Below are positions 6,349 to 30,481 of a DNA stretch of 64,000 nt, piece by piece. The DNA lies in NCBI GenBank assembly GCA_029865605.1, contig JAOUGE010000004.1, positions 2,562 through 66,561 on the forward strand, given 5' to 3'. Every line of letters starts with the position of its first letter. Position 1 is the first letter of the stretch. The DNA is from Candidatus Berkelbacteria bacterium (GTDB lineage Bacteria > Patescibacteriota > UBA1384 > DTJR01). The position numbers and the translations under genes were made by a program. The notes under the pieces are model-generated. The model did not search any database and had not been told where the DNA came from. It saw only the letters and a list, made by a program, of their open reading frames with translations.

Positions 6349-8070
6349 ATGATCAACAAAACCTGTCGACAGTGTAAAAAAGAATTCGCAGTCGAGGACG
6401 ACGACCTCTCATTTTACAAAAAAATCTCCCCCACTTTTGCCGGAAAGACCTTTGATATCCCCCCGCCAACCTCGTGTCCGGAGTGTCGTCAGATGCGTCG
6501 GCTTGCCTGGCGTAATGAAAGGTCGATTTATAAACGAAAATGCGATAAAACAGGCAGAGAAATCGTCAGCATTTTTTCTCCTGACAAAAAAGATTACACT
6601 GTTTACGATCAGCAGATCTGGTGGGGTGACACTTGGGACGCTATGGAATATGGACAGGACTTTGATCCCAACCAGCCGTTTTTTAAGCAATTAGGCCTGC
6701 TCAATAAAAAAGTACCTAAGCTCTCTTTAAATAATATAAACACGGTAAATAGCGAGTACGGCAATCACGTGATGGAGATAAAAAACTGCTATATGTCGGT
6801 AGTTACTTATTATGGCAGTGAGGACGTGCATTATTCTTACGGGGCATTCACTTGTAAAAACTCCATTGACTTATTCATCAGCGAGAAGTGTGAAAACAGC
6901 TATCGCCTTATATATTGTGACAACTGTTATAATTGCCGATATTCTCAACGGCTCAACAATTGCACTGATTGTTATTATTCTATTGATCTGACGGCGTGCT
7001 CGAATTGCCTTTTTTGCTCGAACTTAAAGCACAAGGAATACCACATTCACAACAAAAAATATTCTAAAGAAGATTACGAAAAAGAGCTGCAAAAATATGA
7101 TTTTGGTTCTTGGGAAAAATCAAAGCAATATTGGCAGGAGTTTGTTGAGTTAAAAAATAACTCGATCGTTAAGTTCGCTAACAATGTAAATTGCGATAAT
7201 TGTTCGGGCGATGATTTGACAAATTGCAAGGATGTGAAGTATTCCTTCAGCCAGAAGAGATCGGAACATTCAAAATACAGTTTGCGAGGGGTAAATGATA
7301 AATACTGCTATGACTATATGGGTGGGGACATAGAGTGGGGTTATGAGTTTTTGAGCTCGGGCTATGGCAGCTCTATTTTATTTTGCTATTTAGAAGAAAG
7401 GTCGGCAAACTTGGCTTATTGCATAAGCTGCTTTGGCTGCCGAGATTGCTTTGGGTGTGTGGGATTGAAGAATAAACAGTACTGCGTATTTAATAAAGAG
7501 TATTCAAAGGAAAGTTACGAAGCTTTTGTAGCAAAAATTATTGAGAGGATGATGGCGGATAAAGAGTGGGGAGAGTTTTATCCCTATCAAATGTCGCCGT
7601 TTGGTTTTAACGAGACGCTTGGCTATTCTTATTATCCAATCAAAAAAGAGGAAGCACTAAAGCTTGGCGCCAAGTGGCAGGACGATGATTTCGGTATTAA
7701 ATTTGATGGTAAATTCTATGAGCCGGAAGACGATATTGAAGAGTATAACAAGAGCCAAGAGAAGCGGGAAGAACTGTTGAATGGCGTATTGAAGTGCGAA
7801 GTTTCCGGCAAGCCGTTTAAAATAGTTCCGCAGGAACTTGCATTTTATATGGAACAAAAAGTCCCGATTCCGAGGAAACATTATGACATTAGATACAAAG
7901 AAAATTTTGCTCTTCAGAATCCCCGTAAACTCTGGCATCGCCAATGTGTGTGTGAAGAAAAAGGTCACGGTCACGAGGGAAGATGTAAAAACGAATTCGA
8001 GACAACATACGCTTCCGACAGACCGGAAAAGGTGTATTGCGAAAAGTGCTACCAGAAATCTGTTATTTAG
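6349..8070 (+). CDS. cysteine-rich paralog A1 (zinc-ribbon-like termini, tandem CxxC repeat core), function unknown
   Basis: 573 aa. N-terminus CxxC...CPxCR...RRLAWRNER..YKRKC; C-terminus ELAFY..PIPRKHYD...HRQCVCEE.GHGHEGRC..FETTYAxDRPEKVYCEKCYQKSVI; homologous to six other ORFs in the window. Confidence 0.8.
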   Translation: MINKTCRQCKKEFAVEDDDLSFYKKISPTFAGKTFDIPPPTSCPECRQMRRLAWRNERSIYKRKCDKTGREIVSIFSPDKKDYTVYDQQIWWGDTWDAMEYGQDFDPNQPFFKQLGLLNKKVPKLSLNNINTVNSEYGNHVMEIKNCYMSVVTYYGSEDVHYSYGAFTCKNSIDLFISEKCENSYRLIYCDNCYNCRYSQRLNNCTDCYYSIDLTACSNCLFCSNLKHKEYHIHNKKYSKEDYEKELQKYDFGSWEKSKQYWQEFVELKNNSIVKFANNVNCDNCSGDDLTNCKDVKYSFSQKRSEHSKYSLRGVNDKYCYDYMGGDIEWGYEFLSSGYGSSILFCYLEERSANLAYCISCFGCRDCFGCVGLKNKQYCVFNKEYSKESYEAFVAKIIERMMADKEWGEFYPYQMSPFGFNETLGYSYYPIKKEEALKLGAKWQDDDFGIKFDGKFYEPEDDIEEYNKSQEKREELLNGVLKCEVSGKPFKIVPQELAFYMEQKVPIPRKHYDIRYKENFALQNPRKLWHRQCVCEEKGHGHEGRCKNEFETTYASDRPEKVYCEKCYQKSVI

Positions 8071-8111: not shown

Positions 8112-9770
8112 ATGACGAGAAAATGTATCTCATGTAAAAAAAATTTTGAGATTGAGAAAGAAGATTTAGCTTTTTACAAAAAAATTGGCCCTGTTATCAA
8201 TGAGAAAAAACTCGCAATCGATCCTCCTCGGGAATGTCCATCTTGCCGGGAGATCAGAAGGTGGGCTTATAGAAACCAGAGCTCGCTGTACAAGGCAAAA
8301 TCTGCCCTCTCCGGGGAAGAAATGATTTCTCTTTACCCTCCTATTACCGAATATACGGTATACAAAGAAAATGAGTGGTGGACGGACAAGTGGGATCCGC
8401 TTTCATACGGCCAAGAATATGATTTCTCCAGGCCATTTTTTGAACAGTTTTTCGAACTTCAAAAAAAAGTGCCGAGGCGGGCTCTCCAGCAGGACGGTAC
8501 TAACGAGAATTGCGAGTTTACTACCTACGGAACCAGTAATAAAAACTGCTATCTTGCCTTTGCTTGTAGTGTCTGTGAAGATGTCTACTATACTGATTGG
8601 TCTCATCAACTCAAAGATTGTATAGATTGTATTAAATGCGTGGGTGGTGAATTGCTATATGAGTGTGTAGATAGCAACAACTGCTATAATAGCATGCATT
8701 TAAAAGACTCTAACGCATGCCGGGAATCCTTTTTGCTTGAAGATTGCCAAAGTTGTGCCAATTGCATTTGCTGTAAAAATTTAGTCGAAAAAGAATATTA
8801 TTATTTCAACAAAAAAATCTCAAAACCCGAATATCAAAAAATAGTAGAAGAAGCAAAAAAAGACGATTTCAAGAAACTAGAAGAAAAGTTTAATAAATGG
8901 AAAAAGAGTCAGCCAGCTCGCTTTGCAAGGATTATCGGATCGGAAGAATGCACGGGTGATAATATTTTTAAGTGCAGAAACTGTAAGAAATGTTTTGACC
9001 TTTTGCTTGGAGCGGAGAATTGCAGGTATTGTTATTTCTGCGGAGGGGGTGCTAAGGAAATGTACGATTGCAATATGGCCGGCCAAGGGAGTGAGCTAAT
9101 TTATGAGATGCAAGCTACGGTTGGATCTTATAATTGCGCTTTTATTAACTTTTGTCGAATATCAAAAAATTGTTACTATTCTGATTCGCTTGGATCGTGT
9201 GATAGTTGTTTCGGTTGTATCGGCCTTAATCACAAAAACCATTGTATATTAAACGAGCAATACACAGAGGAAGAATACAAAAGATTACTGCCCAAAATTA
9301 TCGAGCATATGAGAAAGACCGGAGAGTGGGGGCGGGGTTTTCCGATTAAAAACTCGCCGTTTCCGTTTAACGATACTTCGGCATATGAACTTCATCCAAT
9401 CTCAAAGGAAGAGGCTTTAACGAAGGGCTACCTTTGGAATGACAATAAAGTTCTACCGCAAGACGAGAGCAAGATGACTAAAGACGTTTATCAATGCGTT
9501 TCCTGTCTAAGGAAATTCAAAATGATTCCGCACGAGTTATTTTTCTATGAAAGGATGAGCGTAAATAAACCCAAGCAATGCTTTTTCTGTCGAAGAAAAG
9601 AAAGACTAAAAAACAGAATCAGCTACTCGCTTTTTGAAAGAGAGTGCGTGTGCGAGGAGTCGGGTCACGGTCACGAGGGAAGGTGTAAGGTAGAATTTGA
9701 GACAACCTACGCACCGGATAGACCGGAGAAGGTATATTGTGAAGATTGTTATCAAAAATCTATTATATAA
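8112..9770 (+). CDS. cysteine-rich paralog A2
   Basis: 552 aa; shares the N-terminal CxxC/FYKKI module and the C-terminal CVCEESGHGHEGRC...YAPDRPEKVYCEDCYQKS module with the family. Confidence 0.8.
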   Translation: MTRKCISCKKNFEIEKEDLAFYKKIGPVINEKKLAIDPPRECPSCREIRRWAYRNQSSLYKAKSALSGEEMISLYPPITEYTVYKENEWWTDKWDPLSYGQEYDFSRPFFEQFFELQKKVPRRALQQDGTNENCEFTTYGTSNKNCYLAFACSVCEDVYYTDWSHQLKDCIDCIKCVGGELLYECVDSNNCYNSMHLKDSNACRESFLLEDCQSCANCICCKNLVEKEYYYFNKKISKPEYQKIVEEAKKDDFKKLEEKFNKWKKSQPARFARIIGSEECTGDNIFKCRNCKKCFDLLLGAENCRYCYFCGGGAKEMYDCNMAGQGSELIYEMQATVGSYNCAFINFCRISKNCYYSDSLGSCDSCFGCIGLNHKNHCILNEQYTEEEYKRLLPKIIEHMRKTGEWGRGFPIKNSPFPFNDTSAYELHPISKEEALTKGYLWNDNKVLPQDESKMTKDVYQCVSCLRKFKMIPHELFFYERMSVNKPKQCFFCRRKERLKNRISYSLFERECVCEESGHGHEGRCKVEFETTYAPDRPEKVYCEDCYQKSII

Positions 9771-9852: not shown

Positions 9853-11853
9853 ATGGATAAAGAACAAGCAAGAAAACGCATCGAGGTTTTGCGCAAAGAA
9901 ATCGATGAAAATCGTTACCTTTATCATGTTCTCGACAAGCCGCGGGTTTCCGATGCGGTTGACGATTCTCTTAAAAGAGAGCTAGCCAAACTCGAGGAAC
10001 AGTTTCCCGACCTGGTAACGCCTGATTCGCCGACGCAGAGAATTGGCGGGAAGCCGCTCGATAAATTTAAAAAAGTCCGTCATAGAATCCCGATGCTCTC
10101 TTTAAATGATGCCTTCTCCGAAGATGATTTAAAAGCTTGGGAGCAGCGGCTTATCAAACTAGCCGGCGAGAAAAAGATTAAGAATTCGGGCTTCTACTGC
10201 GAGCTTAAAATGGACGGCTTGGCCGTCAGTTTGCAGTATCAAAAAGGAGTTTTAACTGTTGGCACGACCCGCGGCGACGGCCAGATAGGGGAGGATGTAA
10301 CTAATAATTTGAAAACTGTTGAGTCAGTCCCGTTAAAATTAAGGGGTGATGTGGCCGAAGAAATAGAAGTTCGCGGTGAAGTGTATTTGCCCAAAAAAGA
10401 TTTTGAAAAGTTAAATGAAGAACAAAAAAAGAAGGGCGGGCAAATATTCGCCAACCCCCGAAATATTTCTGCCGGCTCAATCCGCCAGCTCGATCCAAAA
10501 ATCACCGCTTCCCGCAATCTGCAGTTTATGATGTATTCGATCCCGACCAGGCTTGATCTTCAATCTCATCACGAAGAGCACGATTTGGCCAAAAAACTTG
10601 GCTTTAAAACAAGTGATAAAAACAAAGTTTGCAAGGACATCAACGAAGTATTATCTTTTCTTAAACATTGGGAAAAAGCGCGCCAGGGTTTGCCTTTTCA
10701 AACTGACGGAGTGGTAGTTGGGGTCGACGATAAGAAGGTTTTTGAACAATTGGGCGTTGTTGGCAAAGCGCCGAGGGGACGGATTGCCTATAAATTTGCT
10801 GCCGAAGAAGCGACTTCTCAGATTAAGGATATTGTTGTTCAAGTCGGGCGCACCGGCAAGCTCACGCCTGTGGCTCATCTTGAGCCGACTTTGGTTGCGG
10901 GCTCGACAATTTCGCGGGCGACGCTTCATAATGCTGATGAAATAAAACGTAAGGACATTAAAATTGGAGATACGGTTGTAATCCACAAGGCCGGTGATGT
11001 TATTCCCGAAGTCAAAGAAGTGATAAAGCGAATGCGAAGCGGCGACGAGAAGGAATTTCATATGCCAAAAGAGTGCCCGATTTGCGGCGGCAAGGTGATT
11101 AAAAGAGAGGGCGAGGTTGATTGGTATTGCGCAGATAGGGATTGTTCGGTAAGGGTGATGCGCTCGATCGGTCATTTTGTCTCAAAAGGTGCTTTTGAAA
11201 TAGACGGTTTGGGGCCGAAGATAATCCAAAAACTAATCGAAGTCGGGTTGGTAAAAGATGCAACCGATATTTTTGATTTAAAACAGGGCGACCTGGAACC
11301 GCTTGAAAGATTTGCCGAGAAATCGGCTCAAAACCTCGTTGAGTCTATCGAAGCAAGCAAGGAAATATCGCTTGACCGGTTTATTTACTCGCTTGGCATT
11401 CGCCACGTCGGCTCGGTTATGGCTCAGGATTTAGCCCGTCAGTTCGGAACGCTTGAAAAATTTACCAAAGCTTGCCATGAAGATTTTGACAGAATGTATG
11501 GTGTGGGAGGGAAAGTCGCCGACAGTATTATTGAATTTTTAGAAGAGGAAAAAAACCTGCGCTTGATTGAGAAAATGCAAAAACTCGGCGTGAAAATAAA
11601 AAGTTTTGAATCGGCCGTGAAAGCCGATAAGTTGAAAGATCAGAGTTTTGTTGTCACCGGTTCGCTTGAAACAATGACACGCGAGGAAGCCCATAAGAAA
11701 ATCATTCAATACGGCGGCGAAGTTCACACCAGCGTTTCATCTCAAACCAACTTTTTAATCGTCGGCGAAGAACCCGGCTCAAAGTTAGATAAAGCGAAAA
11801 AGTTAGGCGTTAAACAAATTTCAGAAAAGAATTTTCTTGAAATGATCTCGTAA
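9853..11853 (+). CDS. ligA: NAD-dependent DNA ligase
   Basis: KxDG adenylation motif (CELKMDGLAVSL), OB, Zn-finger (CPICGG), HhH and C-terminal BRCT; 666 aa. Confidence 0.9.
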   Translation: MDKEQARKRIEVLRKEIDENRYLYHVLDKPRVSDAVDDSLKRELAKLEEQFPDLVTPDSPTQRIGGKPLDKFKKVRHRIPMLSLNDAFSEDDLKAWEQRLIKLAGEKKIKNSGFYCELKMDGLAVSLQYQKGVLTVGTTRGDGQIGEDVTNNLKTVESVPLKLRGDVAEEIEVRGEVYLPKKDFEKLNEEQKKKGGQIFANPRNISAGSIRQLDPKITASRNLQFMMYSIPTRLDLQSHHEEHDLAKKLGFKTSDKNKVCKDINEVLSFLKHWEKARQGLPFQTDGVVVGVDDKKVFEQLGVVGKAPRGRIAYKFAAEEATSQIKDIVVQVGRTGKLTPVAHLEPTLVAGSTISRATLHNADEIKRKDIKIGDTVVIHKAGDVIPEVKEVIKRMRSGDEKEFHMPKECPICGGKVIKREGEVDWYCADRDCSVRVMRSIGHFVSKGAFEIDGLGPKIIQKLIEVGLVKDATDIFDLKQGDLEPLERFAEKSAQNLVESIEASKEISLDRFIYSLGIRHVGSVMAQDLARQFGTLEKFTKACHEDFDRMYGVGGKVADSIIEFLEEEKNLRLIEKMQKLGVKIKSFESAVKADKLKDQSFVVTGSLETMTREEAHKKIIQYGGEVHTSVSSQTNFLIVGEEPGSKLDKAKKLGVKQISEKNFLEMIS

Positions 11854-11902: not shown

Positions 11903-12208
11903 ATGCTGAAAAAAGAAGACGTTGAACACGTCGCTAAGCTTTCGCGTTTGGAATTATCTGATGCGGAAATTGAAAAATTTACGCCGCAACTGTCTTCTGT
12001 TTTTGAAATGTTTGAAAAATTGGACGCCGAAGATTTGAAAAACGTTGAAGAAACATCGCAGGTGACAGGACTCGAAAATGTCACCCGCGAAGACGAGATA
12101 AAGTGTCTTGACGATTTAACTTGCTGCACGACCGAAGAACTGCTAAAAAATATTCCCATTAAAGAAAGCAGTTCAATTTTGGTTCCTAAAGTAATTGAGG
12201 ATAAATGA
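11903..12208 (+). CDS. gatC: Asp/Glu-tRNA amidotransferase subunit C
   Basis: 101 aa; GatC pattern (VEHVAKLSRLELSDAEIEKF...LDAEDLKNVEETSQVTG). Confidence 0.8.
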   Translation: MLKKEDVEHVAKLSRLELSDAEIEKFTPQLSSVFEMFEKLDAEDLKNVEETSQVTGLENVTREDEIKCLDDLTCCTTEELLKNIPIKESSSILVPKVIEDK

Positions 12209-13683
12209 GCAATCTATGTAATTTAACAATTGCCGAAGCTTCAAAGCAGCTTGCCGAGGGCAAGATAACTTCAGCGGATCTGACGAAGTCGGTTTTAGAA
12301 AGGATTGAACAAGTCGAGCCGAAAGTCGAGGCCTATTTGAAAGTGCTTGAGGATTCGGCACTCAAAGAAGCGGAAGCGTCGGATAAAAGACGCCAAGCTG
12401 GAAAGCCGCTTAGCAAATTGGATGGTGTTCCAATCGCGGTTAAAGATTTGTTTTGCACTAAAGACGTTGAAACAACCGCCGCCTCTAATATTCTGAAGGG
12501 GTTTGTACCGTGCTATGAAGCAACAGCGGTTAAAAAATTAAAAGATGCGGGGGTGGTTTTAGTCGGCAAATTAAATCAAGACGCTTTTGCCCACGGGTCA
12601 TCAACCGAAAATTCGGATTTCAAAGTGACCAAGAATCCATGGGATTTGGAGCGGGTGCCGGGGGGATCAAGCGGCGGCTCTGCCGCCGCCGTTGCCGCCG
12701 ATGAGTGCCTCGGCGCGCTTGGCACGGATACCGGCGGCTCGATTCGCCAGCCGGCATCTTTGTGCGGAGTCGTCGGACTCAAGCCAACCTACGGCCGTGT
12801 ATCGAGATACGGCGTAATTGCGATGGCATCTTCACTGGATGTGATTGGCCCGCTAGCCAAGACTACAGAAGACGCAGCTTTGATTATGGAAGTGATTGCC
12901 GGTCGCGATTCTCTTGACGGGACGACTTTAGGTGCACCGGTGCCGGAGTATTCGAAAGAACTTGAGAAGGATATGAAAGGTCTTAAGGTTGGCGTTCCTA
13001 AGGAATATTTTGCTGAGGGGATGGATGAGGACGTAAAAAAGGTTATCGAAAAGTCGGTTGAAAAATTAAAATCTCTTGGCGCGGAAATCGCTGAAATCTC
13101 ACTCCCCCACACCGATATGGCTCTGGCGACTTATTATATTCTTCAGCCTGCTGAAGTGAGTTCGAATCTTTCTCGCTACGATGGAATAAAGTACGGGTTT
13201 TCGACTCTGCGGGAAGAAAAAGAACAACCGCTTGAAAAAGTATATTTTGAATCCCGAGGACAGGGTTTTGGCGCGGAGGCAAAAAGAAGAGTTATGCTCG
13301 GGACCCATGTTTTATCGGCTGGCTACTACGATGCATATTACAAGAAAGCAATGAAGCTCCGCACTCTTGTAAAAAAGGATTTTGACGAGGCATTTAAAAA
13401 AGTTGATGTTATAGTTACGCCCGTCTCGCCAACTCCGGCGTTTAAAATTGGCGAAAAATCTGATAATCCAATCCAGATGTATCTTTCAGACATTTACACA
13501 GTCCCGATCAATCCCGCGGGAGTTCCGGCAATTTCAACACCAGCTGGATTTGTCGAACGTGATGGTAAAAAACTTCCGGTCGGGATACAGATTATTGGGC
13601 CTATGCTCGGCGAGCCAGTTATTCTAAATGTCTCTTATCAGCTTGAAAAAGCACTTTCTTTAAAAGATAGGCCGAAATTATGA
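12205..13683 (+). CDS. gatA: Asp/Glu-tRNA amidotransferase subunit A
   Basis: Amidase signature GGSSGGSAAAVA and catalytic Ser-cisSer-Lys context; start overlaps the gatC stop. Confidence 0.9.
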   Translation: MSNLCNLTIAEASKQLAEGKITSADLTKSVLERIEQVEPKVEAYLKVLEDSALKEAEASDKRRQAGKPLSKLDGVPIAVKDLFCTKDVETTAASNILKGFVPCYEATAVKKLKDAGVVLVGKLNQDAFAHGSSTENSDFKVTKNPWDLERVPGGSSGGSAAAVAADECLGALGTDTGGSIRQPASLCGVVGLKPTYGRVSRYGVIAMASSLDVIGPLAKTTEDAALIMEVIAGRDSLDGTTLGAPVPEYSKELEKDMKGLKVGVPKEYFAEGMDEDVKKVIEKSVEKLKSLGAEIAEISLPHTDMALATYYILQPAEVSSNLSRYDGIKYGFSTLREEKEQPLEKVYFESRGQGFGAEAKRRVMLGTHVLSAGYYDAYYKKAMKLRTLVKKDFDEAFKKVDVIVTPVSPTPAFKIGEKSDNPIQMYLSDIYTVPINPAGVPAISTPAGFVERDGKKLPVGIQIIGPMLGEPVILNVSYQLEKALSLKDRPKL

Positions 13684-14126
13684 GCAAATATCAACACAAA
13701 AAGAAAAGAAATGTGGATGGAATCGGCTCCTCATTTTTTGGCCTTTTGGAAAGAGGAGTCGAGCGGCTTTTTGAGAGGGTATTTAGGCCCAAAGCGACTT
13801 TTGCAGTTTTTTCTCGGGGCGAGTTGACCCAGCTCTGGCAGGGGATGGAAGCAATGGAACCTCGGCTGGCAATAATTGAGGCTGACAAACTTGTTGATAC
13901 AGTTTTGAAGAAAGCCGGCGTGGAGGGGGAATCATTTGCCGACCGCTTGCGCAAAGTTGAAAAGCTGGTTGACAGGAATATTTATAATGGAATGTGGGAG
14001 GCGCATAAAGCTCGCAACGAGCTTGTCCACGAAATCAATCATTCGGTAGATGTGTCAAAATCCCACGTCCTACTTGCAAAAATGAAGGATTTTTTGACCG
14101 CATTGGGGGCATTTAAAAATGACTGA
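13680..14126 (+). CDS. hypothetical protein inserted between gatA and gatB
   Basis: 148-aa ORF whose start and stop overlap gatA and gatB (translational coupling); no recognisable family. Confidence 0.45.
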   Translation: MSKYQHKKKRNVDGIGSSFFGLLERGVERLFERVFRPKATFAVFSRGELTQLWQGMEAMEPRLAIIEADKLVDTVLKKAGVEGESFADRLRKVEKLVDRNIYNGMWEAHKARNELVHEINHSVDVSKSHVLLAKMKDFLTALGAFKND

Positions 14127-15537
14127 AGAATTTAGGACGGTTATAGGACTTGAAATCCACGTTCAGCTTAACACAAGAGCCAAGATGTTTTGCGGTTGCG
14201 ATAATAACGCAGAAGGCAAAGAGCCGAATACGGTTGTTTGCCCGGTTTGTATGGGTATGCCGGGAACCTTGCCGGTTGCAAGTCGCGAGGCGATCGAAAA
14301 GACAATAAAATTGGGGCTAGCACTTGGATGCGAGATTCCCAAGATTTCAAAATTTGACCGCAAGCATTATTTTTATCCCGACCTACCTAAAGGTTATCAG
14401 ATTAGCCAATACGATCAGCCGTTTTGTAAGGGCGGACAAATAGAGCTCGAGTCAGGGACTGTCAAATTAAACAGAGTTCATTTAGAGGAGGATGCCGGAA
14501 AGTTAGTTCATCCGAAAGGGAGCAAATATTCGATCGTGGATTTAAATAGAGCCGGCACACCGCTTTTAGAGATTGTCAGCGAGCCGGATATTACCTCGCC
14601 AGCAATGGCCAAGGATTATATGAAAGAACTTCATTTGATTTTACGAAATTTAAGGATTTCAGATGCGGATATGGAAAAGGGTCAGATGCGCTGTGACGCA
14701 AATATATCAGTCCAGTTAAAAGGGGAAAGGAGAAAGGGTAAAGTAGCTAGCTCACCGATTGTGGAGATAAAAAATTTAAATTCATTTCGTTTCGTGGAAA
14801 AAGCGCTGGCACACGAAGAAAAAAAATTGCAAGAAGAATTCGAGAAGTGGCCGGAAAAAAAGACGAAACTGACTCACGGTTTTGACTCAAATCGCGGCAC
14901 GACTTATCCGATGCGCGAAAAAGAGGAAGCCAAAGACTATCGTTATTTTCCTGAGCCGGATGTTCCGCCGTTTGATTTGACTAGGTTTCCGATTGAAAAA
15001 TGGAAGAAGGAACTGCCCAAACTGCCAAGTCACCACCGTGCTCGGTTGTCTGAACTTGGCTTAACTAAAGAAGAAGCTAACATCATCGCAAAGGATGACA
15101 CGATAAAGGATGTGATCGAAAATGTAGCGGAGAAAAATAAGGCGATTATTGGGAAACTGTTGATCAATAACGTAGAGGCCAGGAAACTTTCGATTGAGGC
15201 TCTTAATCAGATTGCTGATACGATAAGAGATGGCAGCCCGTCAAATTGGGTACGAGATATGATCAGGAGGTCTGTGAAGAGCGGGAAGCTGCCTCTGGAA
15301 ATTGTTAAAGAAACAAAGGGCTTGGCACCGAGCTCGGAAGAAATCTCAGAAAAAACGAAGGAATTTACGAAATTTCTTATTTCTGAAAATCCTGATGTGG
15401 TCCAGAAACATAAGGCAGGAAAAGCCGGAGCCTTGGAGTTTTTAATCGGGCAGGGTATGAAAATGACGAAAGGCACTGTGAACCCGAAAGAGTTAAGGGA
15501 AGAACTAGTTAAGCAGTTGGAAGAGGAGAAAAGATGA
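14119..15537 (+). CDS. gatB: Asp/Glu-tRNA amidotransferase subunit B
   Basis: GLEIHVQLNTRAKMFCGC...CPVCMGMPGTLPV N-terminal GatB signature; 472 aa. Confidence 0.9.
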   Translation: MTEEFRTVIGLEIHVQLNTRAKMFCGCDNNAEGKEPNTVVCPVCMGMPGTLPVASREAIEKTIKLGLALGCEIPKISKFDRKHYFYPDLPKGYQISQYDQPFCKGGQIELESGTVKLNRVHLEEDAGKLVHPKGSKYSIVDLNRAGTPLLEIVSEPDITSPAMAKDYMKELHLILRNLRISDADMEKGQMRCDANISVQLKGERRKGKVASSPIVEIKNLNSFRFVEKALAHEEKKLQEEFEKWPEKKTKLTHGFDSNRGTTYPMREKEEAKDYRYFPEPDVPPFDLTRFPIEKWKKELPKLPSHHRARLSELGLTKEEANIIAKDDTIKDVIENVAEKNKAIIGKLLINNVEARKLSIEALNQIADTIRDGSPSNWVRDMIRRSVKSGKLPLEIVKETKGLAPSSEEISEKTKEFTKFLISENPDVVQKHKAGKAGALEFLIGQGMKMTKGTVNPKELREELVKQLEEEKR

Positions 15538-15836
15538 AAAACGTAAGAACAGCAATAATAAATTCACTTGGTGTCCTAATTTATGTGGCGATTGTCTCAA
15601 CTGTGATGACTTATGCCGAAAAGATTTTTGGCAAGATGAATACGATTGTTGGGGCAGTCGGATTTCTGATGCTTTTTACTCTTTCGGCTGGAGTTGTTGG
15701 TTCATTGATAATCGGCAAGCCGATTATGCTGTATATTGATAATAAGAAAAAGGAAGCGGTAAGTCTACTTGTTTGGACTTTGGTTTTCCTTGCTATAATT
15801 ACTATCGCAGTTTTAATTTATTTGGGGGTGAGATAA
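15534..15836 (+). CDS. small integral membrane protein (3 predicted TM helices)
   Basis: 100-aa hydrophobic ORF overlapping the gatB stop and ending 1 nt before paralog B1. Confidence 0.45.
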   Translation: MKNVRTAIINSLGVLIYVAIVSTVMTYAEKIFGKMNTIVGAVGFLMLFTLSAGVVGSLIIGKPIMLYIDNKKKEAVSLLVWTLVFLAIITIAVLIYLGVR

Positions 15837-15837
15837 A

Positions 15838-17562
15838 ATGCCACAAACAAAACAATGTAAACAGTGTAGCCAGGAATTTCAGATAACAGATGATGATTTA
15901 GAATTTTTGAAGAAAGTAAGCCCGATTTTACAGGGGCAAACTATTTTAATCTCTCCGCCGACTCTCTGTCCGACTTGCAGAGAGATCAAGAGATTATGCT
16001 GGCGGAATGAGCGAAGTTTGTACAAAAGAAAATCGGATAAGTCAGGCAGGGAAATTGTTTCTATTTATTCGCCTGATAAAACCGATTATCAGGTGTATGA
16101 TATTTCCGAATATCAAAGCGATGAATTTGACCCGATGAGTTTCGGCCAGGAATATGATTTTTCAAAAAGCTTCTTTGCCCAATACGACGAATTGCTTCAT
16201 AAGGTTCCGAGAAAAGCTAGCAACACAACTAGAAATGAAAACAGTGACTACTGTAACCAAACATGGCAAACCAAAGATTCATATCTTTGTTTTAATGTTG
16301 GTTATGCTGAGAACTGCCTTTACTGCACAGAAGCTTTCCATGTTAAAAATTGTGTAGATTGTTTTGATATAAGAGATTGCGAGTATTGCTATAGTTGTTT
16401 TGATTGCGTTAACTGTAACAAATCGAAATATATTGAACACTGTAGAGATTGTTTTGAGTGCTATTTTATTTATGACTGTTTGGGTTGCAAAAATGTTGTT
16501 CTTTCCAGCGGCCTTCATAACAAACAGTATGTCTTTGAAAATAAACAGTTAACAAAAGAGGAATACGAAGAGAGGGTAAAAAACATCGATTTTTCCAGTA
16601 GAGCTGCAATGGATGAGCTTAAAAAGCGATTCGAAGAATTGAAAAAGAGTGCCATTCATCGCGAGAACAATAATATTTCTTCAGAAAATTGCACGGGAGA
16701 TTATTTGATCGAATGTAAGGATTGCACAGATTGTTATAATGCCCTGAAAAGTGAGGGGTGCAAAAGGGTTGCCGGAATTGATGATGCTTCGCGCGATTGT
16801 CGAGATATGAACATTATTACTGAGGCGGAGCTTTGCTATGAAGGCACAAGTGTGACCGGACACAAAAACCTTTTAAGCGTTTTTGTGGTCTATGGCAGTG
16901 ATAATATATATTGTAATTTTTGCGAAAATTGCAACAACTGCTTCGGGTGTGTCGGACTAAACCACAAACAATACTGCATCTTGAATAAACAGTATGCGAA
17001 AGATGAATATGAGAAACTGCTAGCAAAAACAATTGAGAAGATGAAAGAGGACAATGAGTGGGGAGAATTTTTCCCGATGAGCATTTCTCCGTTTGGTTAT
17101 AACGAGGCATTAGTAAATGCCTATCATCCAAAATCAAAAGATGAGGCAAAAAAACTTGGTGCAAAATGGCAAGACAATGATTATTCTCTTCAATATCAGG
17201 GTGAATTTTATGCGCCAAAGGATTCTATAAAGGAATATGTTGCCTCGAATGACGAAGTAAAAAATTTGCTCAATGGAGTCTTGGAATGCGAGACAAGCGG
17301 AAAAGCATTTAAGGTCATGCCGCAGGAAATCGCTTTTTACATGGAGCATAATATTCCTGTTCCATCCAAGCACTCTGAGATTCGATACGAAGAATTATTT
17401 AAAAAAAGAAATCCCCGTAAACTCCACCACCGCCAGTGTATGTGTGAAGAATCTGGCCACGATCATGGCGGACGTTGTCCTGTTGAATTTGAAACCACCT
17501 ACGCACCCGACCGGCCGGAGAAGATTTATTGTGAAAACTGTTATCAGAAATCAGTTATATGA
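15838..17562 (+). CDS. cysteine-rich paralog B1
   Basis: 574 aa; the same conserved termini as A1 (CKQCSQEF..DDDLEF.KKVSP...CPTCREIKRLCWRNERSLYKRK; ...HRQCMCEESGHDHGGRC..FETTYAPDRPEKIYCENCYQKSVI). Confidence 0.8.
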   Translation: MPQTKQCKQCSQEFQITDDDLEFLKKVSPILQGQTILISPPTLCPTCREIKRLCWRNERSLYKRKSDKSGREIVSIYSPDKTDYQVYDISEYQSDEFDPMSFGQEYDFSKSFFAQYDELLHKVPRKASNTTRNENSDYCNQTWQTKDSYLCFNVGYAENCLYCTEAFHVKNCVDCFDIRDCEYCYSCFDCVNCNKSKYIEHCRDCFECYFIYDCLGCKNVVLSSGLHNKQYVFENKQLTKEEYEERVKNIDFSSRAAMDELKKRFEELKKSAIHRENNNISSENCTGDYLIECKDCTDCYNALKSEGCKRVAGIDDASRDCRDMNIITEAELCYEGTSVTGHKNLLSVFVVYGSDNIYCNFCENCNNCFGCVGLNHKQYCILNKQYAKDEYEKLLAKTIEKMKEDNEWGEFFPMSISPFGYNEALVNAYHPKSKDEAKKLGAKWQDNDYSLQYQGEFYAPKDSIKEYVASNDEVKNLLNGVLECETSGKAFKVMPQEIAFYMEHNIPVPSKHSEIRYEELFKKRNPRKLHHRQCMCEESGHDHGGRCPVEFETTYAPDRPEKIYCENCYQKSVI

Positions 17563-19280
17563 GCCAAAATAAAACGTGCAAGCAGTGTAATGAACAATTT
17601 ATCGTTGAAGACGAAGATCTAGAGTTCTACAAAAAAATCTTTCCGACTTTTGCCGGTAAAACTTATCATATCCCGCCGCCGACGCTGTGTCCGGATTGCA
17701 GGATGATAAGACGGCTTCTTTGGCGCAACGAGAGAGCCCTTTATAAACGGAAATGTGAACGTACGGGTAAAGAAATTGTATCGATCTATTCTCCCGACAA
17801 AAAGCATTTTAAGGTGTGGAATCAAGACGAGTGGTATAAGGACAATTGGGACCCGCTCGATTTTGGGAGGACATATAACTCTTCCGAGTCGTTCTTTAAA
17901 CAGTTTTATGAATTGCAGCAAAATGTCCCGCGTCCCGCAATGAGTTTTTTTAATTGCGAAGATTGCTATTATTGCAATTTCGTCTGGAATGCTAAAAAAT
18001 GTTATCTCTGTTGGGCAACGATGGATCTTGAGAATTGTATGTATTCGACGAGATCATTTGAATCGGTCGGATGTGTTGACTGTATTGATACGAGAAATAG
18101 CCAGCATTGCTACAGTTGTCTTGACTGCGAGAATTGCTATAAAGCTAGGTACTCAGAACGATGTAAGGATTGCTCAGAGATTTCTTTTTGTTTCGACTGT
18201 CGAGGATGTAAAAATATCTATCTTTGCACGAATCTTAGGAACAAACAATATTATATTCGGAACAAGCAGTACAGCCGCGAAGAGTATTTCCGTGTTTTAG
18301 AAAAAAATGCGGGGAGCATATCGCGGGGGAAGCAAGATACTGCCGAGTTGAAAGAGATGGAGGAAAAGTCAATTCATCCTGAAAATTACAACCTGAAGTG
18401 TGAGGACTGCTCGGGGGATTATCTGACCGAATGTAAAAACTGTTCTGAGTGTTTTTTGGTCGCCAAATCTGAAAGCAGCAAGTATATTTTGAGCGGAAAC
18501 CAGAATATAAATCATAGCTACGATATATACCAAAATGTAGATAGCGAATTTAGCTACGAAGGAATCGGCGGCTCGGGATATAAAAATATTTTTTGTGCTT
18601 GGATGATGCGCGGTAATGATAATTATTACTGTAATTTTTGTGAAAGCTGCTCAAATTGTTTTGGTTGTTTTGGGTTGAAACAAAAACAACACTGCATTTT
18701 AAACAAACAGTATTCCAAAGAGGAATACGAGAAGATTGTGTCTGAAATAATAGAGAAAATGAGCAAAGACAAGGAATGGGGCGAATATTTTCCCTCTTGG
18801 TCAGCGCCATTTTGTTACAACGAGACTATGGCAAATACCTGGTTTCCAAAGTCCCGTGACGAAGCGGTGAAGCTTGACGCCAAATGGCAAGACAATGATT
18901 ATATCCCGAATTATTCGGGAGATTATTACTCGCCTAAAGACAAAATTGAAGAATACATTGGCAACAAAGAAGAACAGGAAAAAATGGTGGAAGGGGTACT
19001 GAAGTGCGAGGTTTCGGGAAAACCATTTAAGATTATGCCTCAAGAGCTTAATTTTTATATTGAGAACAAAATTGCGATACCGACTAAGCACTATGAAGTT
19101 AGGTACTTGGAGAGATTTAATCTTAGGAACCCCCGCAAGCTTTACCGTCGCCAGTGTATGTGTGAAGAACCGGGACATAATCATGAGGGAAGATGCAAAA
19201 TTGAGTTTGAGGCTACCTACGCACCCGATCGGCCGGAGAAGATTTATTGTGAAAACTGTTATCAAAAGACGGTAATATGA
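17559..19280 (+). CDS. cysteine-rich paralog B2
   Basis: 573 aa; ATGA overlap with the B1 stop; conserved family termini. Confidence 0.8.
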   Translation: MSQNKTCKQCNEQFIVEDEDLEFYKKIFPTFAGKTYHIPPPTLCPDCRMIRRLLWRNERALYKRKCERTGKEIVSIYSPDKKHFKVWNQDEWYKDNWDPLDFGRTYNSSESFFKQFYELQQNVPRPAMSFFNCEDCYYCNFVWNAKKCYLCWATMDLENCMYSTRSFESVGCVDCIDTRNSQHCYSCLDCENCYKARYSERCKDCSEISFCFDCRGCKNIYLCTNLRNKQYYIRNKQYSREEYFRVLEKNAGSISRGKQDTAELKEMEEKSIHPENYNLKCEDCSGDYLTECKNCSECFLVAKSESSKYILSGNQNINHSYDIYQNVDSEFSYEGIGGSGYKNIFCAWMMRGNDNYYCNFCESCSNCFGCFGLKQKQHCILNKQYSKEEYEKIVSEIIEKMSKDKEWGEYFPSWSAPFCYNETMANTWFPKSRDEAVKLDAKWQDNDYIPNYSGDYYSPKDKIEEYIGNKEEQEKMVEGVLKCEVSGKPFKIMPQELNFYIENKIAIPTKHYEVRYLERFNLRNPRKLYRRQCMCEEPGHNHEGRCKIEFEATYAPDRPEKIYCENCYQKTVI

Positions 19281-20986
19281 GTATCAATCAAACCTGCAAA
19301 CAGTGTCAAAAGGAATTCTCGGTCGACAATGAAGAATTAGCCTTGCTAGATAAACTTTCTCCAACTGTTGGCGGACAAAAGCTAGATATTCCTGTACCAA
19401 CACACTGTTTTAGCTGTAGGGCAAAAAGACGTTTAGGCTGGCGAAATGAAAGGTCGCTTTACAATCGCAAATGTGACAAATCCGGTAAAGAGATTGTTTC
19501 AGTGTATCCGCCCGATTCGGAGTATAAAGTCTTTGAACAAAAGGAGTGGTGGGGCGATGGATGGGATGCCAAGGATTATGGGCAGGACTTCGATTTTACA
19601 AAATCCTTTTTTGAGCAGTTTGCAGAACTAAATAAAAAAGTCCCTAAATGTGCACTCCTAAATAAAAATCCGGATAATAGTGATTACCTAAATCGCGCCG
19701 AAGATAATAAAGACAGTTATATGTCTTTTGACCTTGGATGGAACGAAAAAATTTTTTATTCAAGGACTATTTATAATTGCAACAATCTCATTGATTGTAC
19801 TTTTTGTAGAGATCATTGCTCTTTTTCTTACGAATGCCTGAATTGTAATTCTGTTGTTAGCTCTAGTTATTGCATTGATTCTTCCAAACTATCTGAATGC
19901 CATTTTTGTTTTAATTTGCATGGTTGCCAAAACTGTATATTTTGCGCCAACCTGCATAACAAACAATATTGTATTGAAAATAAACAGTACTCCAAAGAAG
20001 AATTCGAGCAAAAGCTGAAAGAATATGACTTTGGGTCTTATCAAAAAATTCAGGAATATAAAACTAGATTCGCCAATATTGTAAAAAGTTGTGTTCATAA
20101 ATATGCGAGTAATTTAAAATGTGAGAATTGTAGTGGGGATTATCTTGAAAATTGTAAGAATATTAAAATCAGTTTTGGGGTGAAGAATTCTGAAAATGGA
20201 AGATATATGTTCGATTCCGAAAGAGGTAAAGATACAATGGATGATTGCTTTTCTGGCGGTGAGGGAGCAGAACTAAATTATGAAGTGCTTGGAGCTGGCT
20301 GGCCATACAACACGAAGTTCAATAATTCGTCGTGGCACTGCTCAAATGTCATTTATATAAACTTTTGCCAACACTGCAAGGATTGCTTTGGATGTTCGAA
20401 CATGAAAAGAGCACAGTACTGCATCCTGAATAAGCAATATTCCAAAGAAGAATACGAGAAATTAATACCCAAGATCGTGGAACATATGAAAAAAACAGGC
20501 GAATGGGGCGAGTTTTTTCCACTTCAGATGTCTGAGTTTAGTTATAACGAATCTGTTGCAAACGAGTACTTTCCTCAATCCAAAGAAGAAGTTTTACAAA
20601 ACGGTTGGAAGTGGAAAGATAAAGTCGACAACCTGGTACCGTCATCCGGTTATGTAATTGCGGACAATATTAATGAGATAACAAATGAAATTTTAGAAAA
20701 GGTATTAGTTTGTGAAGTCACCAAAAGACCTTATAAAATTCAGTCCCGGGAGCTCGCATTTTATATCGAACAAAATATCCCAATTCCTCACAAGCATCCC
20801 GATCAACGTCACCACGAGCGGCTTTCATTGCGCAACGCACTAAAGCTCCATCACCGCCAATGTATGTGCGAGGAATCTGACCATGACCATTCCGGGCGCT
20901 GTCCCGTTGAGTTTGAAACTACTTATGCTCCAGATCGGCCGGAAAAAGTGTATTGTGAAAACTGTTATCAGAAGACGGTTATATAA
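19277..20986 (+). CDS. cysteine-rich paralog B3
   Basis: 569 aa; ATGA overlap with the B2 stop; conserved family termini. Confidence 0.8.
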   Translation: MSINQTCKQCQKEFSVDNEELALLDKLSPTVGGQKLDIPVPTHCFSCRAKRRLGWRNERSLYNRKCDKSGKEIVSVYPPDSEYKVFEQKEWWGDGWDAKDYGQDFDFTKSFFEQFAELNKKVPKCALLNKNPDNSDYLNRAEDNKDSYMSFDLGWNEKIFYSRTIYNCNNLIDCTFCRDHCSFSYECLNCNSVVSSSYCIDSSKLSECHFCFNLHGCQNCIFCANLHNKQYCIENKQYSKEEFEQKLKEYDFGSYQKIQEYKTRFANIVKSCVHKYASNLKCENCSGDYLENCKNIKISFGVKNSENGRYMFDSERGKDTMDDCFSGGEGAELNYEVLGAGWPYNTKFNNSSWHCSNVIYINFCQHCKDCFGCSNMKRAQYCILNKQYSKEEYEKLIPKIVEHMKKTGEWGEFFPLQMSEFSYNESVANEYFPQSKEEVLQNGWKWKDKVDNLVPSSGYVIADNINEITNEILEKVLVCEVTKRPYKIQSRELAFYIEQNIPIPHKHPDQRHHERLSLRNALKLHHRQCMCEESDHDHSGRCPVEFETTYAPDRPEKVYCENCYQKTVI

Positions 20987-21020: not shown

Positions 21021-21308
21021 ATGGCAGATGAAAAACCCACCGAAAGCAGAAAACAGAGATTGGCCCGGGAGCTGAAGGCGGAAACAACTAAGACCTTTGC
21101 TACACTTCTGACTTCGGCTTTTGGCCTAATTGCCGCCTTTGCCTGGAATGACTTTGTCAGGGGGACAATAAACCGCTACATTGCGCCGGGTCAGGGGCTT
21201 AAATCCCAGCTGCTTTACGCTATTTTGGTAACGCTTTTGGCGATAGTTGTGTCTTTCCAATTAGGCAAACTGGCCGCACGCTACAAAGCGGACGACGAAA
21301 GTAAATAA
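21021..21308 (+). CDS. small membrane protein, unknown function
   Basis: 95 aa, two TM helices, RBS AGGAGA upstream. Confidence 0.45.
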   Translation: MADEKPTESRKQRLARELKAETTKTFATLLTSAFGLIAAFAWNDFVRGTINRYIAPGQGLKSQLLYAILVTLLAIVVSFQLGKLAARYKADDESK

Positions 21309-21351: not shown

Positions 21352-22539
21352 ATGGAATCTCAATCTAGTCGAGCCTTAATTATTTTTCTCGTTGTATTAA
21401 GCTTCCTAGCCGGCATATTAGGAGGAATTGGCGGGATTGCTTTAGTTTCCTCGTCCGAGACATTGCAAAGAGGTCTCGGCATCTCCGAAAGCGGGGTTAA
21501 GCTGCCCGCACCGGAGAGAATAGAAAATATTACAGTTAAGGAAGACTCGGCAGTAATAAGCGCGGTTAGAAAAGTATCTCCCTCGGTCGTAAGCGTTGTC
21601 TTCACTAAGGATGTCAAGGTAATTAACCCTTTTAGCTTTTTCGGGGAAGGGGAATCTATCCAGCGTGAACAGGGTAGTGCTACGGGCTTTATCATCACCT
21701 CGGAAGGTCTAATCGCCACCAACAAACATGTGGCAAGCGTGGAAGGCGCTGATTATCAAGTGATTACCCCGGATGGCAAGCAATACAAGGCGGAGGTAGC
21801 TTCTTTAGACCCCTCGACCGATTTTGCAATTCTTAAAATCGATGCTAAGGGTTTGCCGGTGGTTGAGTTTGGCGACTCCGATAACGTCGAGGTAGGCCAG
21901 AGAGTGGTGGCAATCGGCAATGCTCTAGGTGAGTTTCAGAACACGGTTACCGTCGGTGTTCTTTCCGGCAAGGAAAGAACACTTGAGGCAGCCACTGCTA
22001 CTGGCGAATCGGCTTCGACCCTGGAAGGTCTTCTTCAAACTGATGCGGCAATCAATGAAGGAAATTCCGGCGGGCCGCTAATTAATTTAAAGGGGCAGGT
22101 GATTGGCATTAACACCGCAACCGCCGCTAAGGGCCAAGCGGAAGGACTTGGTTTTTCGATTCCCGTTAATTCGATTAAGACTGCCATTGAATCATATAAA
22201 AAGTACGACAAGATTGTCAGGCCTTACTTGGGAGTTCGATACGCTATGGTCGACCAGAAAATTGCTGCATTACGGGGCTTGAAAGAGGAGAAAGGAGCTT
22301 TGGTTTATGGCGACTCAAGCCGAGGTCTGGACGCGGTGGTTAAAGGTTCGCCGGCTGAGAAAGCGGGTATAAAAGAAGGCGACGTAATCTTGAAAATTAA
22401 TAATGATGAGGTCAAGGCCGGAAGTTCCTTGGCGCGACTTTTGAGCAAATATCAGCCGGGCGATGAGGTTACAATAAAAATTTTGCGTGACGGTAAAGAA
22501 CAAGATGCAAAAGTGAAACTTGGGGAAATGCCAAGCTAG
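21352..22539 (+). CDS. htrA: HtrA/DegP-family serine protease with PDZ domain
   Basis: N-terminal TM, trypsin-like catalytic motifs (TNKHV, DFAILKI, GNSGGPLIN) and C-terminal PDZ. Confidence 0.85.
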   Translation: MESQSSRALIIFLVVLSFLAGILGGIGGIALVSSSETLQRGLGISESGVKLPAPERIENITVKEDSAVISAVRKVSPSVVSVVFTKDVKVINPFSFFGEGESIQREQGSATGFIITSEGLIATNKHVASVEGADYQVITPDGKQYKAEVASLDPSTDFAILKIDAKGLPVVEFGDSDNVEVGQRVVAIGNALGEFQNTVTVGVLSGKERTLEAATATGESASTLEGLLQTDAAINEGNSGGPLINLKGQVIGINTATAAKGQAEGLGFSIPVNSIKTAIESYKKYDKIVRPYLGVRYAMVDQKIAALRGLKEEKGALVYGDSSRGLDAVVKGSPAEKAGIKEGDVILKINNDEVKAGSSLARLLSKYQPGDEVTIKILRDGKEQDAKVKLGEMPS

Positions 22540-22574: not shown

Positions 22575-22860
22575 CTAAAAATTCGAGGTGATGCCGTCCC
22601 GACCGCTGTTGGCGTGTCGGGACGGCATTGGGCAGAGGGTCAGGGCCCCCGCAGACAACCGAGGCAGACCGGTTGTCCGCTGGGATCGTTGGTCAGAAAT
22701 GTATCCCGTCCGTGGATCCCTTGGGGACACCGACCGCGGAAGACGAGGGCGCGACGATGGGGCTCTGGGAGCCAGCCTAACAGCTGCCGCAACAGCTTTA
22801 TCATCGCAATCACCTCTTATTTTCGAGCATAGCAAATCTAGTACGGTTATTTAAGTCGTT
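22575..22860. other. GC-rich (~60%) non-coding island; candidate structured ncRNA
   Basis: Convergent intergenic region between htrA (+) and prmC (-). Contains a perfect 13-bp-stem hairpin (22591-22628) and the hairpin GACAACCG-N8-CGGTTGTC. Both strands are open but encode only Arg/Ser/Pro-rich junk. Confidence 0.35.
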
Positions 22861-30207: not shown

Positions 30208-30225
30208 GGGTCGCTCACCGCTTGA

Positions 30226-30384: not shown

Positions 30385-30481
30385 GAGCTGTGCGGTTTGC
30401 TTAAGTTCTAATTATTTTTGTCTCCTTTAGCAACTTTGATTTTTCGGCGGGAATCAGCTAAATTAAAAGAGAGGTGAAGAT

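Follow-up and report, generated by a model that had tools for sequence, protein, structure and literature searches.

Three tandem genes for cysteine-rich paralogous proteins, here called B1, B2 and B3, lie directly behind the gatCAB genes of a Candidatus Berkelbacteria metagenome-assembled genome (MAG; GenBank assembly GCA_029865605.1, contig JAOUGE010000004.1), within a stretch of 64,000 nucleotides that was analysed at its full length and is referred to below as the window. The reading of this locus that we consider fairly likely combines four elements: the B genes belong to a family found only in Patescibacteria, their array was inserted behind gatB and its link to the gat genes is positional, the regular neighbours of the family are a VirD4-like ATPase and a TrmB-type regulator, and the similarity between the 3′ ends of the paralogues is mainly due to constraint on the encoded protein.

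Eight plus-strand genes follow one another from gatC to B3: gatC (11903-12208; Pfam GatC, 9.3e-17), gatA (12205-13683; Amidase, 8.8e-153), orf148 (13680-14126), gatB (14119-15537; GatB_N, 8.5e-110, and GatB_Yqey), mem100, which codes for a membrane protein of 100 amino acids (15534-15836), B1 (15838-17562; 574 amino acids, 40 of them cysteines), B2 (17559-19280; 573 amino acids, 42 cysteines) and B3 (19277-20986; 569 amino acids, 36 cysteines). According to the scan of open reading frames (ORFs) and the reading of the junctions, the seven gaps are -4, -4, -8, -4, +1, -4 and -4 nucleotides, and ATGA overlaps are found at five of the seven junctions (gatC/gatA, gatB/mem100, B1/B2 and B2/B3 among them). 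While all seven gaps of the block are of 1 nucleotide or less, this is the case for 7 of the 46 same-strand junctions elsewhere in the window; the stretch is the tightest of the window, and its packing exceeds chance. An earlier note on this DNA had described an uninterrupted plus-strand array with overlapping or 1-nucleotide-spaced genes, as well as ATGA sequences shared by B1/B2 and B2/B3, and both descriptions were borne out (the two junctions read ATATGA).

From this arrangement, co-transcription of the B array with gatCAB is plausible. The tightly packed insert would most likely be read through from the gat transcript, and B2 and B3 would be translated by termination-reinitiation at the ATGA overlaps. 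The duplex energies of Shine-Dalgarno (SD)-like sequences are strong for B1 (-12.7 kcal/mol), weak for B3 (-4.7 kcal/mol) and indicate no such sequence for B2 (-0.8 kcal/mol); as many genes of this genome lack an SD sequence, the values at B2 and B3 are at most suggestive of translational coupling, and SD strength was rejected as a proof of it because it does not discriminate. Several points weigh against this account of expression. SD strength is weak in many genes of this genome (median -4.0), a promoter may lie inside gatB or mem100, and the promoter and terminator scans of the block were uninformative on transcription: the consensus scan for terminator-like sites returned 9, compared with 10.5 in shuffled sequences, and none at any gene junction.

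The position of the array is best understood by comparison with related loci. In the window, the backbone begins with an M48 peptidase gene (5187-6089, plus strand; Peptidase_M48, 1.6e-32), its upstream anchor, which is syntenic in L007, L085, L089 and L096 (loci are numbered with the prefix L), and continues with ligA, coding for an NAD-dependent DNA ligase (9853-11853, plus strand; DNA_ligase_aden, 1.2e-90, and other ligase domains). Behind the B array it resumes with a DUF5654 gene (21021-21308, plus strand; 5.8e-21), the ancestral downstream neighbour of gatB, and ends with the gene of an HtrA-type serine protease (21352-22539, plus strand; Trypsin_2 and PDZ). The earlier note had proposed comparing this locus for gain or loss of copies, and that comparison, run across relatives, found the B array absent behind gatB in about 12 loci. 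In L007, L008, L084-L086, L088, L089, L092, L094-L096 and L116, gatB is followed directly by the DUF5654 gene; from L084 onwards in this series, the order gatB-DUF5654-htrA extends as far as the contig reaches, with spacers of a few to about 110 nucleotides. The gene order of these relatives therefore marks M48-ligA-gatC-gatA-orf148-gatB-DUF5654-htrA as the ancestral backbone. Family copies are present in L007 and L008 upstream of ligA or gatC, with nothing between gatB and DUF5654, and the interval between M48 and ligA, which in the window holds two further family members, is free of them in L085 and L089. These gene orders indicate that family arrays entered the backbone at different points in different lineages and that the B array is, as we infer, a lineage-specific insertion between gatB and DUF5654.

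Family genes and gatB are rarely found together. A family gene follows gatB in 1 of 80 GatB-anchored metagenome loci, and gatB lies within 10 kb in 3 of 82 family loci; additionally, B1-B3 match none of the GatC, Amidase or GatB models of Pfam and NCBIfam. The earlier note had tied the paralogues to translation-fidelity genes, and as a functional link this tie was not supported. The single GatB-anchored case, L083 (GatB 71% identical), was rejected as an orthologous insertion, as its family copy is just 43-47% identical in amino acids to every paralogue of the window. The 71-nucleotide spacer between gatB and the family gene of L083 (2446-2516) contains an inverted repeat of 13 bp without mismatches, AACCTGTTATTTC...GAAATAACAGGTT, shortly before the SD sequence; the repeat may be a regulatory hairpin.

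The closest relatives of B1 point to the place from which the array may have come. The B1 orthologue lineage comprises genes of L001, L003, L005 and L006 (78%, 64%, 56-58% and 55-57% amino acid identity, respectively), and in L001, L005 and L006 the B1-type orthologues stand in arrays immediately downstream of a VirD4-like gene, the array of L001 counting seven copies. The VirD4-linked array of the window, composed of two genes called C1 and C2, lacks a B1-type copy, which is consistent with part of this array having been relocated to the gat locus. The B array probably moved here from it. A homologue of mem100 (65% identical) is found in L007 (7147-7395) after two family copies and upstream of ligA, and this gene seems to travel with family arrays; it is not homologous to the 98-amino-acid membrane protein encoded after C2 (58324-58620). 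We therefore envisage that one array, together with the gene of a small membrane protein, was inserted between gatB and DUF5654 in this Berkelbacteria lineage. As the insertion would have taken place in an otherwise conserved backbone, the linkage to gatCAB would be positional hitch-hiking and not a functional partnership.

Some observations argue in the opposite direction. Insertion here is preferred to loss elsewhere by parsimony, on a sample of about 12 loci. Neither a target-site duplication, nor an insertion scar, nor an alignable junction was found at the borders of the B array. Lastly, the family genes are just about 1 standard deviation below the other genes in GC content and in GC content at third codon positions (GC3, 0.41 as compared with 0.46±0.06), and a foreign composition was consequently rejected.

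The B genes are three of the seven paralogues present in the window (A1, A2, B1-B3, C1 and C2), which share 37-56% of their amino acids and contain 33-43 cysteines each. A1 (6349-8070, plus strand; 573 amino acids) and A2 (8112-9770, plus strand; 552 amino acids) occupy the interval between M48 and ligA; the former is 42-56% identical to the other six and the latter 37-39% to the other copies. C1 (54791-56509, plus strand) and C2 (56584-58308, plus strand) code for 572 and 574 amino acids, and C2 is 64% identical to the first copy after the VirD4-like gene of L005. The identity between B1 and B2 is 52%, and B3 is 44-45% identical to both of them; B1-B3 appear as three old, divergent tandem members of the family. 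Further copies are found on other contigs of the same MAG.

Beyond this genome, more than 4,649 homologues were found among the candidates that were scored, every one of them annotated as ‘hypothetical’. At 50% identity the family forms 5,604 clusters with E<=1e-3, including 2,355 with E<=1e-30, and nearly all of them have 540-600 amino acids and align from end to end. All of the 78 genome loci that were recovered are from Patescibacteria (Peribacteria/Peregrinibacteria, Gracilibacteria, Paceibacterota, Nomurabacteria, Abawacabacteria and Berkelbacteria-like genomes). Tandem arrays are frequent: at least two copies are present in 60 of 82 family loci (±10 kb), with a maximum of 11 that fill a 21-kb locus, and one third of the same-strand junctions between family genes are of 30 nucleotides or less. 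The seven paralogues have no significant match in Pfam, NCBIfam, PADLOC or the sequences of the PDB, and neither the family nor its cassette with TrmB and ATPase genes was found described in the literature searches. To judge from these comparisons, the family is restricted to Patescibacteria, previously undescribed and very large.

The regular partners of the family were sought by clustering all ORFs of 83 loci, with the GatB-anchored loci (n=80) as controls. Only two widely shared neighbour families emerged: a VirD4/TraG-like P-loop ATPase of the 749-amino-acid type, in 26 loci, and a TrmB protein of about 250 amino acids with a winged helix-turn-helix domain (PF01978), in 29. In the comparison with controls, the ATPase was found in 24 of 82 family loci and in none of the 80 controls (Fisher, 1.7e-8), and the TrmB-like regulator in 19 of 82 and none of 80 (Fisher, 1.2e-6). 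The ATPase of the window (52450-54699, plus strand; 749 amino acids) matches the Pfam families TrwB_AAD_bind (5.3e-11), T4SS-DNA_transf (3.5e-9) and TraG-D_C, and it has no N-terminal hydrophobic or membrane segment, that is, it is predicted to be soluble. In about 18 loci across several classes, the ATPase gene lies 43-250 bp from the family array on the same strand. In the typical cassette, a divergent TrmB gene on the minus strand is followed by several family genes and the ATPase gene on the plus strand, while the Berkelbacteria-like order is the ATPase gene and then the family array, both on the plus strand; elsewhere in the genome of the window, a further family copy stands between two TrmB genes. 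Thus, the neighbourhoods suggest that the regular genomic partners of the family are the VirD4-like ATPase and the TrmB-type regulator and not translation genes. Two considerations reduce the weight of this association: about 70% of the family loci have no VirD4-like gene within 10 kb, and the link to the ATPase is one of neighbourhood in which many loci come from related genomes and are not independent.

Other genes also accompany the arrays. A pair formed by a DUF5674 gene (about 113 amino acids) and a gene of 110 amino acids is located just after or inside family arrays in L001 (16136-16770), L003 (12880-13550) and L006, and AbiEii-like nucleotidyltransferase genes are found upstream of family copies in L003, L004 and L005. 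Around the C array, the 16S rRNA gene (43373-44834), tRNA-Ile(GAT) (51594-51670) and tRNA-Ala(TGC) (58624-58699), whose tRNA genes normally share one rRNA operon spacer, are split by protein genes, and the ATPase, C1 and C2 genes sit between the two tRNA genes; L006 is arranged alike. There is no 23S rRNA gene within the window.

The similarity of the 3′ ends requires separate consideration, as the earlier note had described the last 60 or so nucleotides of B1, B2 and B3 as nearly identical and as a source of homology for gene conversion or deletion between copies. The 3′-terminal 151 nucleotides are the most conserved DNA across all seven copies (repeat family D1), and the nucleotide identity of the last 50 codons is 0.61-0.79 in all 21 pairs of paralogues, compared with 0.49-0.60 elsewhere in the genes. 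This elevation in every pair follows from the protein, whose C-terminal 45-50 residues are near-invariant (RQCMCEExGHxHxGRCxxEFETTYAPDRPEKVYCExCYQKSVI). A null in which the protein sequences were kept and the codons redrawn from the codon usage of the family gave, for the last 20 codons, a nucleotide identity of 0.77-0.79 from protein conservation alone. The value for B1/B2 is 0.90 (P=0.003, and P=0.007 when judged by the maximum of all pairs), and these two genes also share an exact run of 35 nucleotides beyond the null (P<=0.001 over all 21 pairs). By contrast, B1/B3 and B2/B3 have no significant excess over this null in the last 20 codons. The absence of raised identity at the gene ends, which would have spoken against the earlier proposal, was therefore not observed in any pair, but the elevation goes beyond protein constraint for B1/B2 and not for the pairs that include B3.

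The excess between B1 and B2 is confined to a tract of 50 nucleotides (17497-17546 in B1 and 19215-19264 in B2, both on the plus strand), at which 49 of 50 positions agree. The near-identity described earlier thus stands for B1 and B2 and was overstated for B3, whose counterpart matches at 41 of 50 positions, no better than the unlinked paralogue A2 (42 of 50). Over the whole gene, the nucleotide identity of B1 is 75% with its L001 orthologue (78% in amino acids) and 62.6% with B2, and in the 60 nucleotides that precede the tract B1 also matches the L001 orthologue better (48 of 60) than B2 (42 of 60). Inside the tract the order is reversed, as B1 matches B2 at 49 of 50 positions and the L001 orthologue at just 38 of 50. 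Additionally, B1 and B2 have in common the derived residues I and N in PEKIYCENCY, where the B1-type genes of L001 and L003 have EKVYCESCY. As the tract and the remainder of B1 differ in their relation to the L001 orthologue, the tract is most likely the product of one short gene conversion, of about 50 nucleotides, between B1 and B2. Against this, the tract could reflect shared selection on the mRNA, since each copy sits just upstream of the start of the next gene.

It might be proposed that ongoing concerted evolution keeps the 3′ ends of B1, B2 and B3 alike and drives deletions and duplications of unit length. The B1/B2 tract, with its exact run above the null and its discordance with the B1 orthologue, agrees with this proposal, as do the conservation of the terminal 151 nucleotides and the wide variation of array sizes across genomes. 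However, the pairs with B3 have no excess and B3 is no closer than A2, a run of 35 nucleotides is of marginal length for homologous recombination, and the proteins of the paralogues differ by 44-63%. Moreover, outside the tract the fraction of identical residues encoded by the same codon is about 0.45, that is, saturated, so the paralogues are old and bear no sign of ongoing homogenisation. Neither chimeric nor truncated copies are present in the window, where no recent exchange, chimera or deletion was visible among the paralogues outside the B1/B2 tract; of the role in conversion and deletion suggested earlier, only this one tract was found. Consequently, we regard ongoing concerted evolution as unlikely, and the comparisons instead suggest that the 3′ similarity is mostly the result of purifying selection on a near-invariant C-terminal zinc knuckle. 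A target of a diversity-generating retroelement was also considered and rejected: there is no template repeat, the only repeats being the conserved coding segments of the paralogues themselves, and variability does not peak at the 3′ end, where the encoded protein is at its most conserved. No ORF resembling a reverse transcriptase was noticed near the arrays, although no search was aimed at reverse transcriptase models.

The architecture of the family was predicted for B1 with an AlphaFold2 model that drew on an alignment of 114 sequences (predicted local distance difference test, pLDDT, 91.3; predicted template-modelling score, pTM, 0.90; residues 130-180 are weaker, at 58-68). In this model, a zinc-ribbon module with helices (residues 1-125) is followed by a first beta-solenoid (126-235), helices (240-270), a second solenoid (273-385), a long helix (388-404), a conserved alpha/beta region (about 405-530) and a zinc knuckle (530-574). 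The N-terminal 93 residues are homologous to residues 475-571, approximately (hhalign probability 98.5%, E 3e-15), and both solenoids are capped at an equal offset by a helix with GLxNKQYxIxNKQxxKEEYE; the protein thus appears to be built from internal duplications. In the first solenoid, the distances between cysteines are exclusively multiples of 3 and most frequent at 12 and 24, which defines a super-period of 12 residues, and its motif recurs at positions 181, 193, 205 and 217. Each coil has four inward positions, taken in order of frequency by Cys, then Ser, then Leu/Val/Ile. The invariant cysteines are confined to the terminal CxxC, CxC and HxH motifs, while those of the solenoids are frequent yet replaceable. 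Pairwise identity falls to 0.28-0.37 across the solenoids and linker (0.34-0.37 for the solenoids themselves) and rises to 0.51-0.79 in the end modules. As no hydrophobic segment is found in any paralogue, N-terminus included, all of them are predicted to be soluble proteins of the cytoplasm.

This architecture is confidently predicted and yet has no fold match. Foldseek searches of the full model against the PDB were limited to local matches with beta-helix acyltransferases (TM-score 0.06-0.18). In BFVD, the full model matched beta-helices of the phage fibre type and a ‘zinc-ribbon domain protein’ of a phage. Over all fold searches, TM-scores above about 0.2 were seen in a few short zinc-ribbon fragments alone (36-78 columns). 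The C-terminal module, modelled separately (pLDDT 82), had no analogue in the PDB beyond local zinc-finger resemblance, and a search with the N-terminal domain returned just fragments of the cysteine-rich family itself. In residues 122-212 of B1, within the first solenoid, tblastn gave a weak match (E=1e-4; 33% over 90 amino acids) with a hypothetical protein of the Campylobacter phage CP220, and Foldseek also touched a protein of Campylobacter phage CP20; the CP220 match may reflect a shared cysteine-repeat motif or distant homology.

Some likenesses to known proteins can nevertheless be described. The antifreeze protein of Tenebrio molitor is a cysteine beta-helix with 12-residue coils (TCTxSxxCxxAx), and it resembles the family solenoids, in sequence periodicity alone, by its inward Cys, Ser or small residue at every third position and its coil period of 12. 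By contrast, no Foldseek, hidden Markov model or PDB match connects the two, the cysteine density of the family is twice that of the antifreeze protein, a TxT face is absent, and the family solenoids are embedded between zinc-ribbon modules and carry no signal peptide, which makes disulfides unlikely. The left-handed (hexapeptide) beta-helices of LpxD, GlmU, LpxA and gamma-carbonic anhydrase are the sole PDB matches of the full model and share its local solenoid geometry, but the TM-scores are those given above, with a root mean square deviation of 13-20 Å, there is no Hexapep match in Pfam, and the period of the family is 12 residues (3 per side) instead of 18. A few homologues have precomputed matches to the zinc ribbons PF13451 and PF23477 (‘CxxC-x17-CxxC domain’) in their terminal CxxC...CxxC modules; however, no paralogue of the window matches Pfam at E<=0.1, and these models cover less than 10% of the protein. 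A LIM or cysteine-rich zinc finger was rejected, as the best profile match (1ctl) has an E value of 0.058-0.088 over 28-42 residues.

Our best guess on function, drawn from neighbourhood and predicted architecture, is that the family works with the VirD4-like ATPase as a set of partners or substrates with variable surfaces. Constancy would reside in the conserved end modules, which would serve for docking or nucleic acid binding, and variability in the surfaces of the solenoids. In Xanthomonas, the X-Tfe effectors are recruited by VirD4 through a conserved C-terminal domain, XVIPCD. By analogy, the family may be likened to these effectors as a multigene family with a conserved C-terminal module, a variable remainder and a link to a VirD4-type ATPase; the likeness is one of description and not of sequence or fold, and the family differs in that conservation extends over its entire architecture, the neighbouring ATPase is soluble and no toxin domain is present. 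Classical substrates of VirB/D4 type IV secretion systems (T4SS) have an unstructured, positively charged C-terminal translocation signal. Such a signal was not found in the family, whose C-terminus is a conserved Cys/His zinc knuckle (...EFETTYAPDRPEKVYCExCYQKSVI), net acidic and predicted with a pLDDT of 88-95, and the ATPase is devoid of the membrane anchor that canonical coupling proteins possess. Its solubility, together with the acidic, zinc-folded C-terminus of the family, therefore argues against a textbook T4SS substrate and counts against our proposal.

The neighbouring ATPase belongs to a gene type that has been surveyed before. Quinonero-Coronel et al. (2025, PMC12102498) counted 5,713 orphan VirD4-like genes in 2,918 genomes of Patescibacteria, 148 of them near virB4, and raised their possible exaptation. 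The ATPase of the window, by its Pfam matches, appears to be a homologue of these genes, the type that adjoins the family arrays; in the searched passages of that paper, the neighbours of the ATPases are not described. A tentative and rather unlikely extension of our proposal would be that the family supplies the missing partners of the orphan soluble VirD4-like ATPases that Patescibacteria encode by the thousands. Each array would then code for interchangeable zinc-ribbon proteins with cysteine-ladder beta-solenoids, whose docking ends are constant and whose surfaces vary. Under a TrmB-type switch, the ATPase would handle these proteins, which would be exported toward the host cell or serve as a diversified repertoire for recognition. 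Bolder still is the idea that the coils with three or four inward cysteines bind a stack of metal ions.

A slightly less probable alternative is that the family and the ATPase, regarded as VirD4/HerA-like, form a diversified conflict or defence system, in which foreign nucleic acids or proteins would be sensed or bound by the variable solenoid proteins and the ATPase, controlled by TrmB, would serve as the motor or effector. Such a system could be expected to comprise tandem, divergent paralogues whose surfaces vary and whose ends are constant, zinc ribbons are typical nucleic acid binders, and AbiEii-like and four-helix-bundle genes adjoin some arrays. Additionally, the ATPase has weak PADLOC matches to mad8 and HerA. 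However, the best of these reaches 45.5 bits (E 1.7e-12, to the candidate model mad8) and HerA 15-24 bits, while the Pfam matches are to VirD4/TraG/TrwB families; no family member matches any PADLOC model, and the conserved neighbours showed neither a nuclease nor a toxin domain.

It is improbable that the B array is the cargo of a mobile element (a plasmid, a phage or an integrative element) that landed in the gat operon. The position of the array is shifted relative to relatives, the C array and the VirD4-like gene stand between tRNA-Ile and tRNA-Ala here and in L006, and the GC content is slightly below that of the neighbours, as such an origin would predict. By contrast, no homologue was found in 72,556 plasmids, 50,697 phage records gave a single match of 90 amino acids at 33% identity (Campylobacter phage CP220, in two records), no integrase, transposase, relaxase or flanking repeats were found at the B array, and the GC difference is of about 1 standard deviation; on the searches of plasmid and phage records, a plasmid or phage origin was rejected. 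Finally, that the paralogues are functionally tied to GatCAB, for instance as accessory factors that bind zinc and act in tRNA-dependent amidation or in translation fidelity, is very improbable and largely refuted by synteny, as the overlapping junctions unbroken from gatC to B3 and the presence of family copies in the same ligA-gat neighbourhood of L007 and L008 are outweighed by the family gene being after gatB in just 1 of 80 GatB-anchored loci, by the L007 and L008 copies being upstream of ligA or gatC and never after gatB, by the lack of gatB within 10 kb in 79 of 82 family loci, and by the B1 orthologues adjoining the VirD4-like ATPase.

Some other features of the window are described here in their own right. 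The insert orf148, of 130-150 amino acids in its homologues, is conserved between gatA and gatB, with ATGA and 8-nucleotide overlaps, at the same position in at least nine Berkelbacteria-like loci. It contains an R-x4-H (HEPN-like) motif, within an invariant MWEAHKxRNxLVHE in the homologues, and its Pfam matches are weak (HEPN_Apea, E=0.0065, and HEPN_RiboL-PSP, E=0.058, in one member each). Between htrA and prmC, a GC-rich island of 230 nucleotides (22585-22815; 64% GC as compared with about 44% in the window) folds much better than shuffled sequences (z = -3.6 on the plus strand and -5.3 on the minus strand). Neither Rfam nor the fetched loci contained a match to it, and it may be a structured RNA that has not been described before. 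Another GC-rich element, about 110 nucleotides long, is present in two copies (1555-1666 and 30271-30381) that are 89-94% identical and 28.7 kb apart, with no Rfam match at 30150-30500.

For the biology of these organisms, the fusion to gatCAB is ordinary compaction in a reduced genome and has little functional meaning. The cysteine-rich family, by contrast, is among the larger uncharacterised families of Patescibacteria, with extreme tandem amplification, and annotators gain a family to model. The role of VirD4-like ATPases in these episymbionts is an open question (PMC12102498), and the neighbourhood link between the family and the ATPase makes the role of the orphan coupling proteins experimentally addressable. 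If the family were indeed the missing partner set of these ATPases, it would represent a new ATPase-client system specific to the candidate phyla radiation (CPR), which would take up to about 2% of these tiny genomes.

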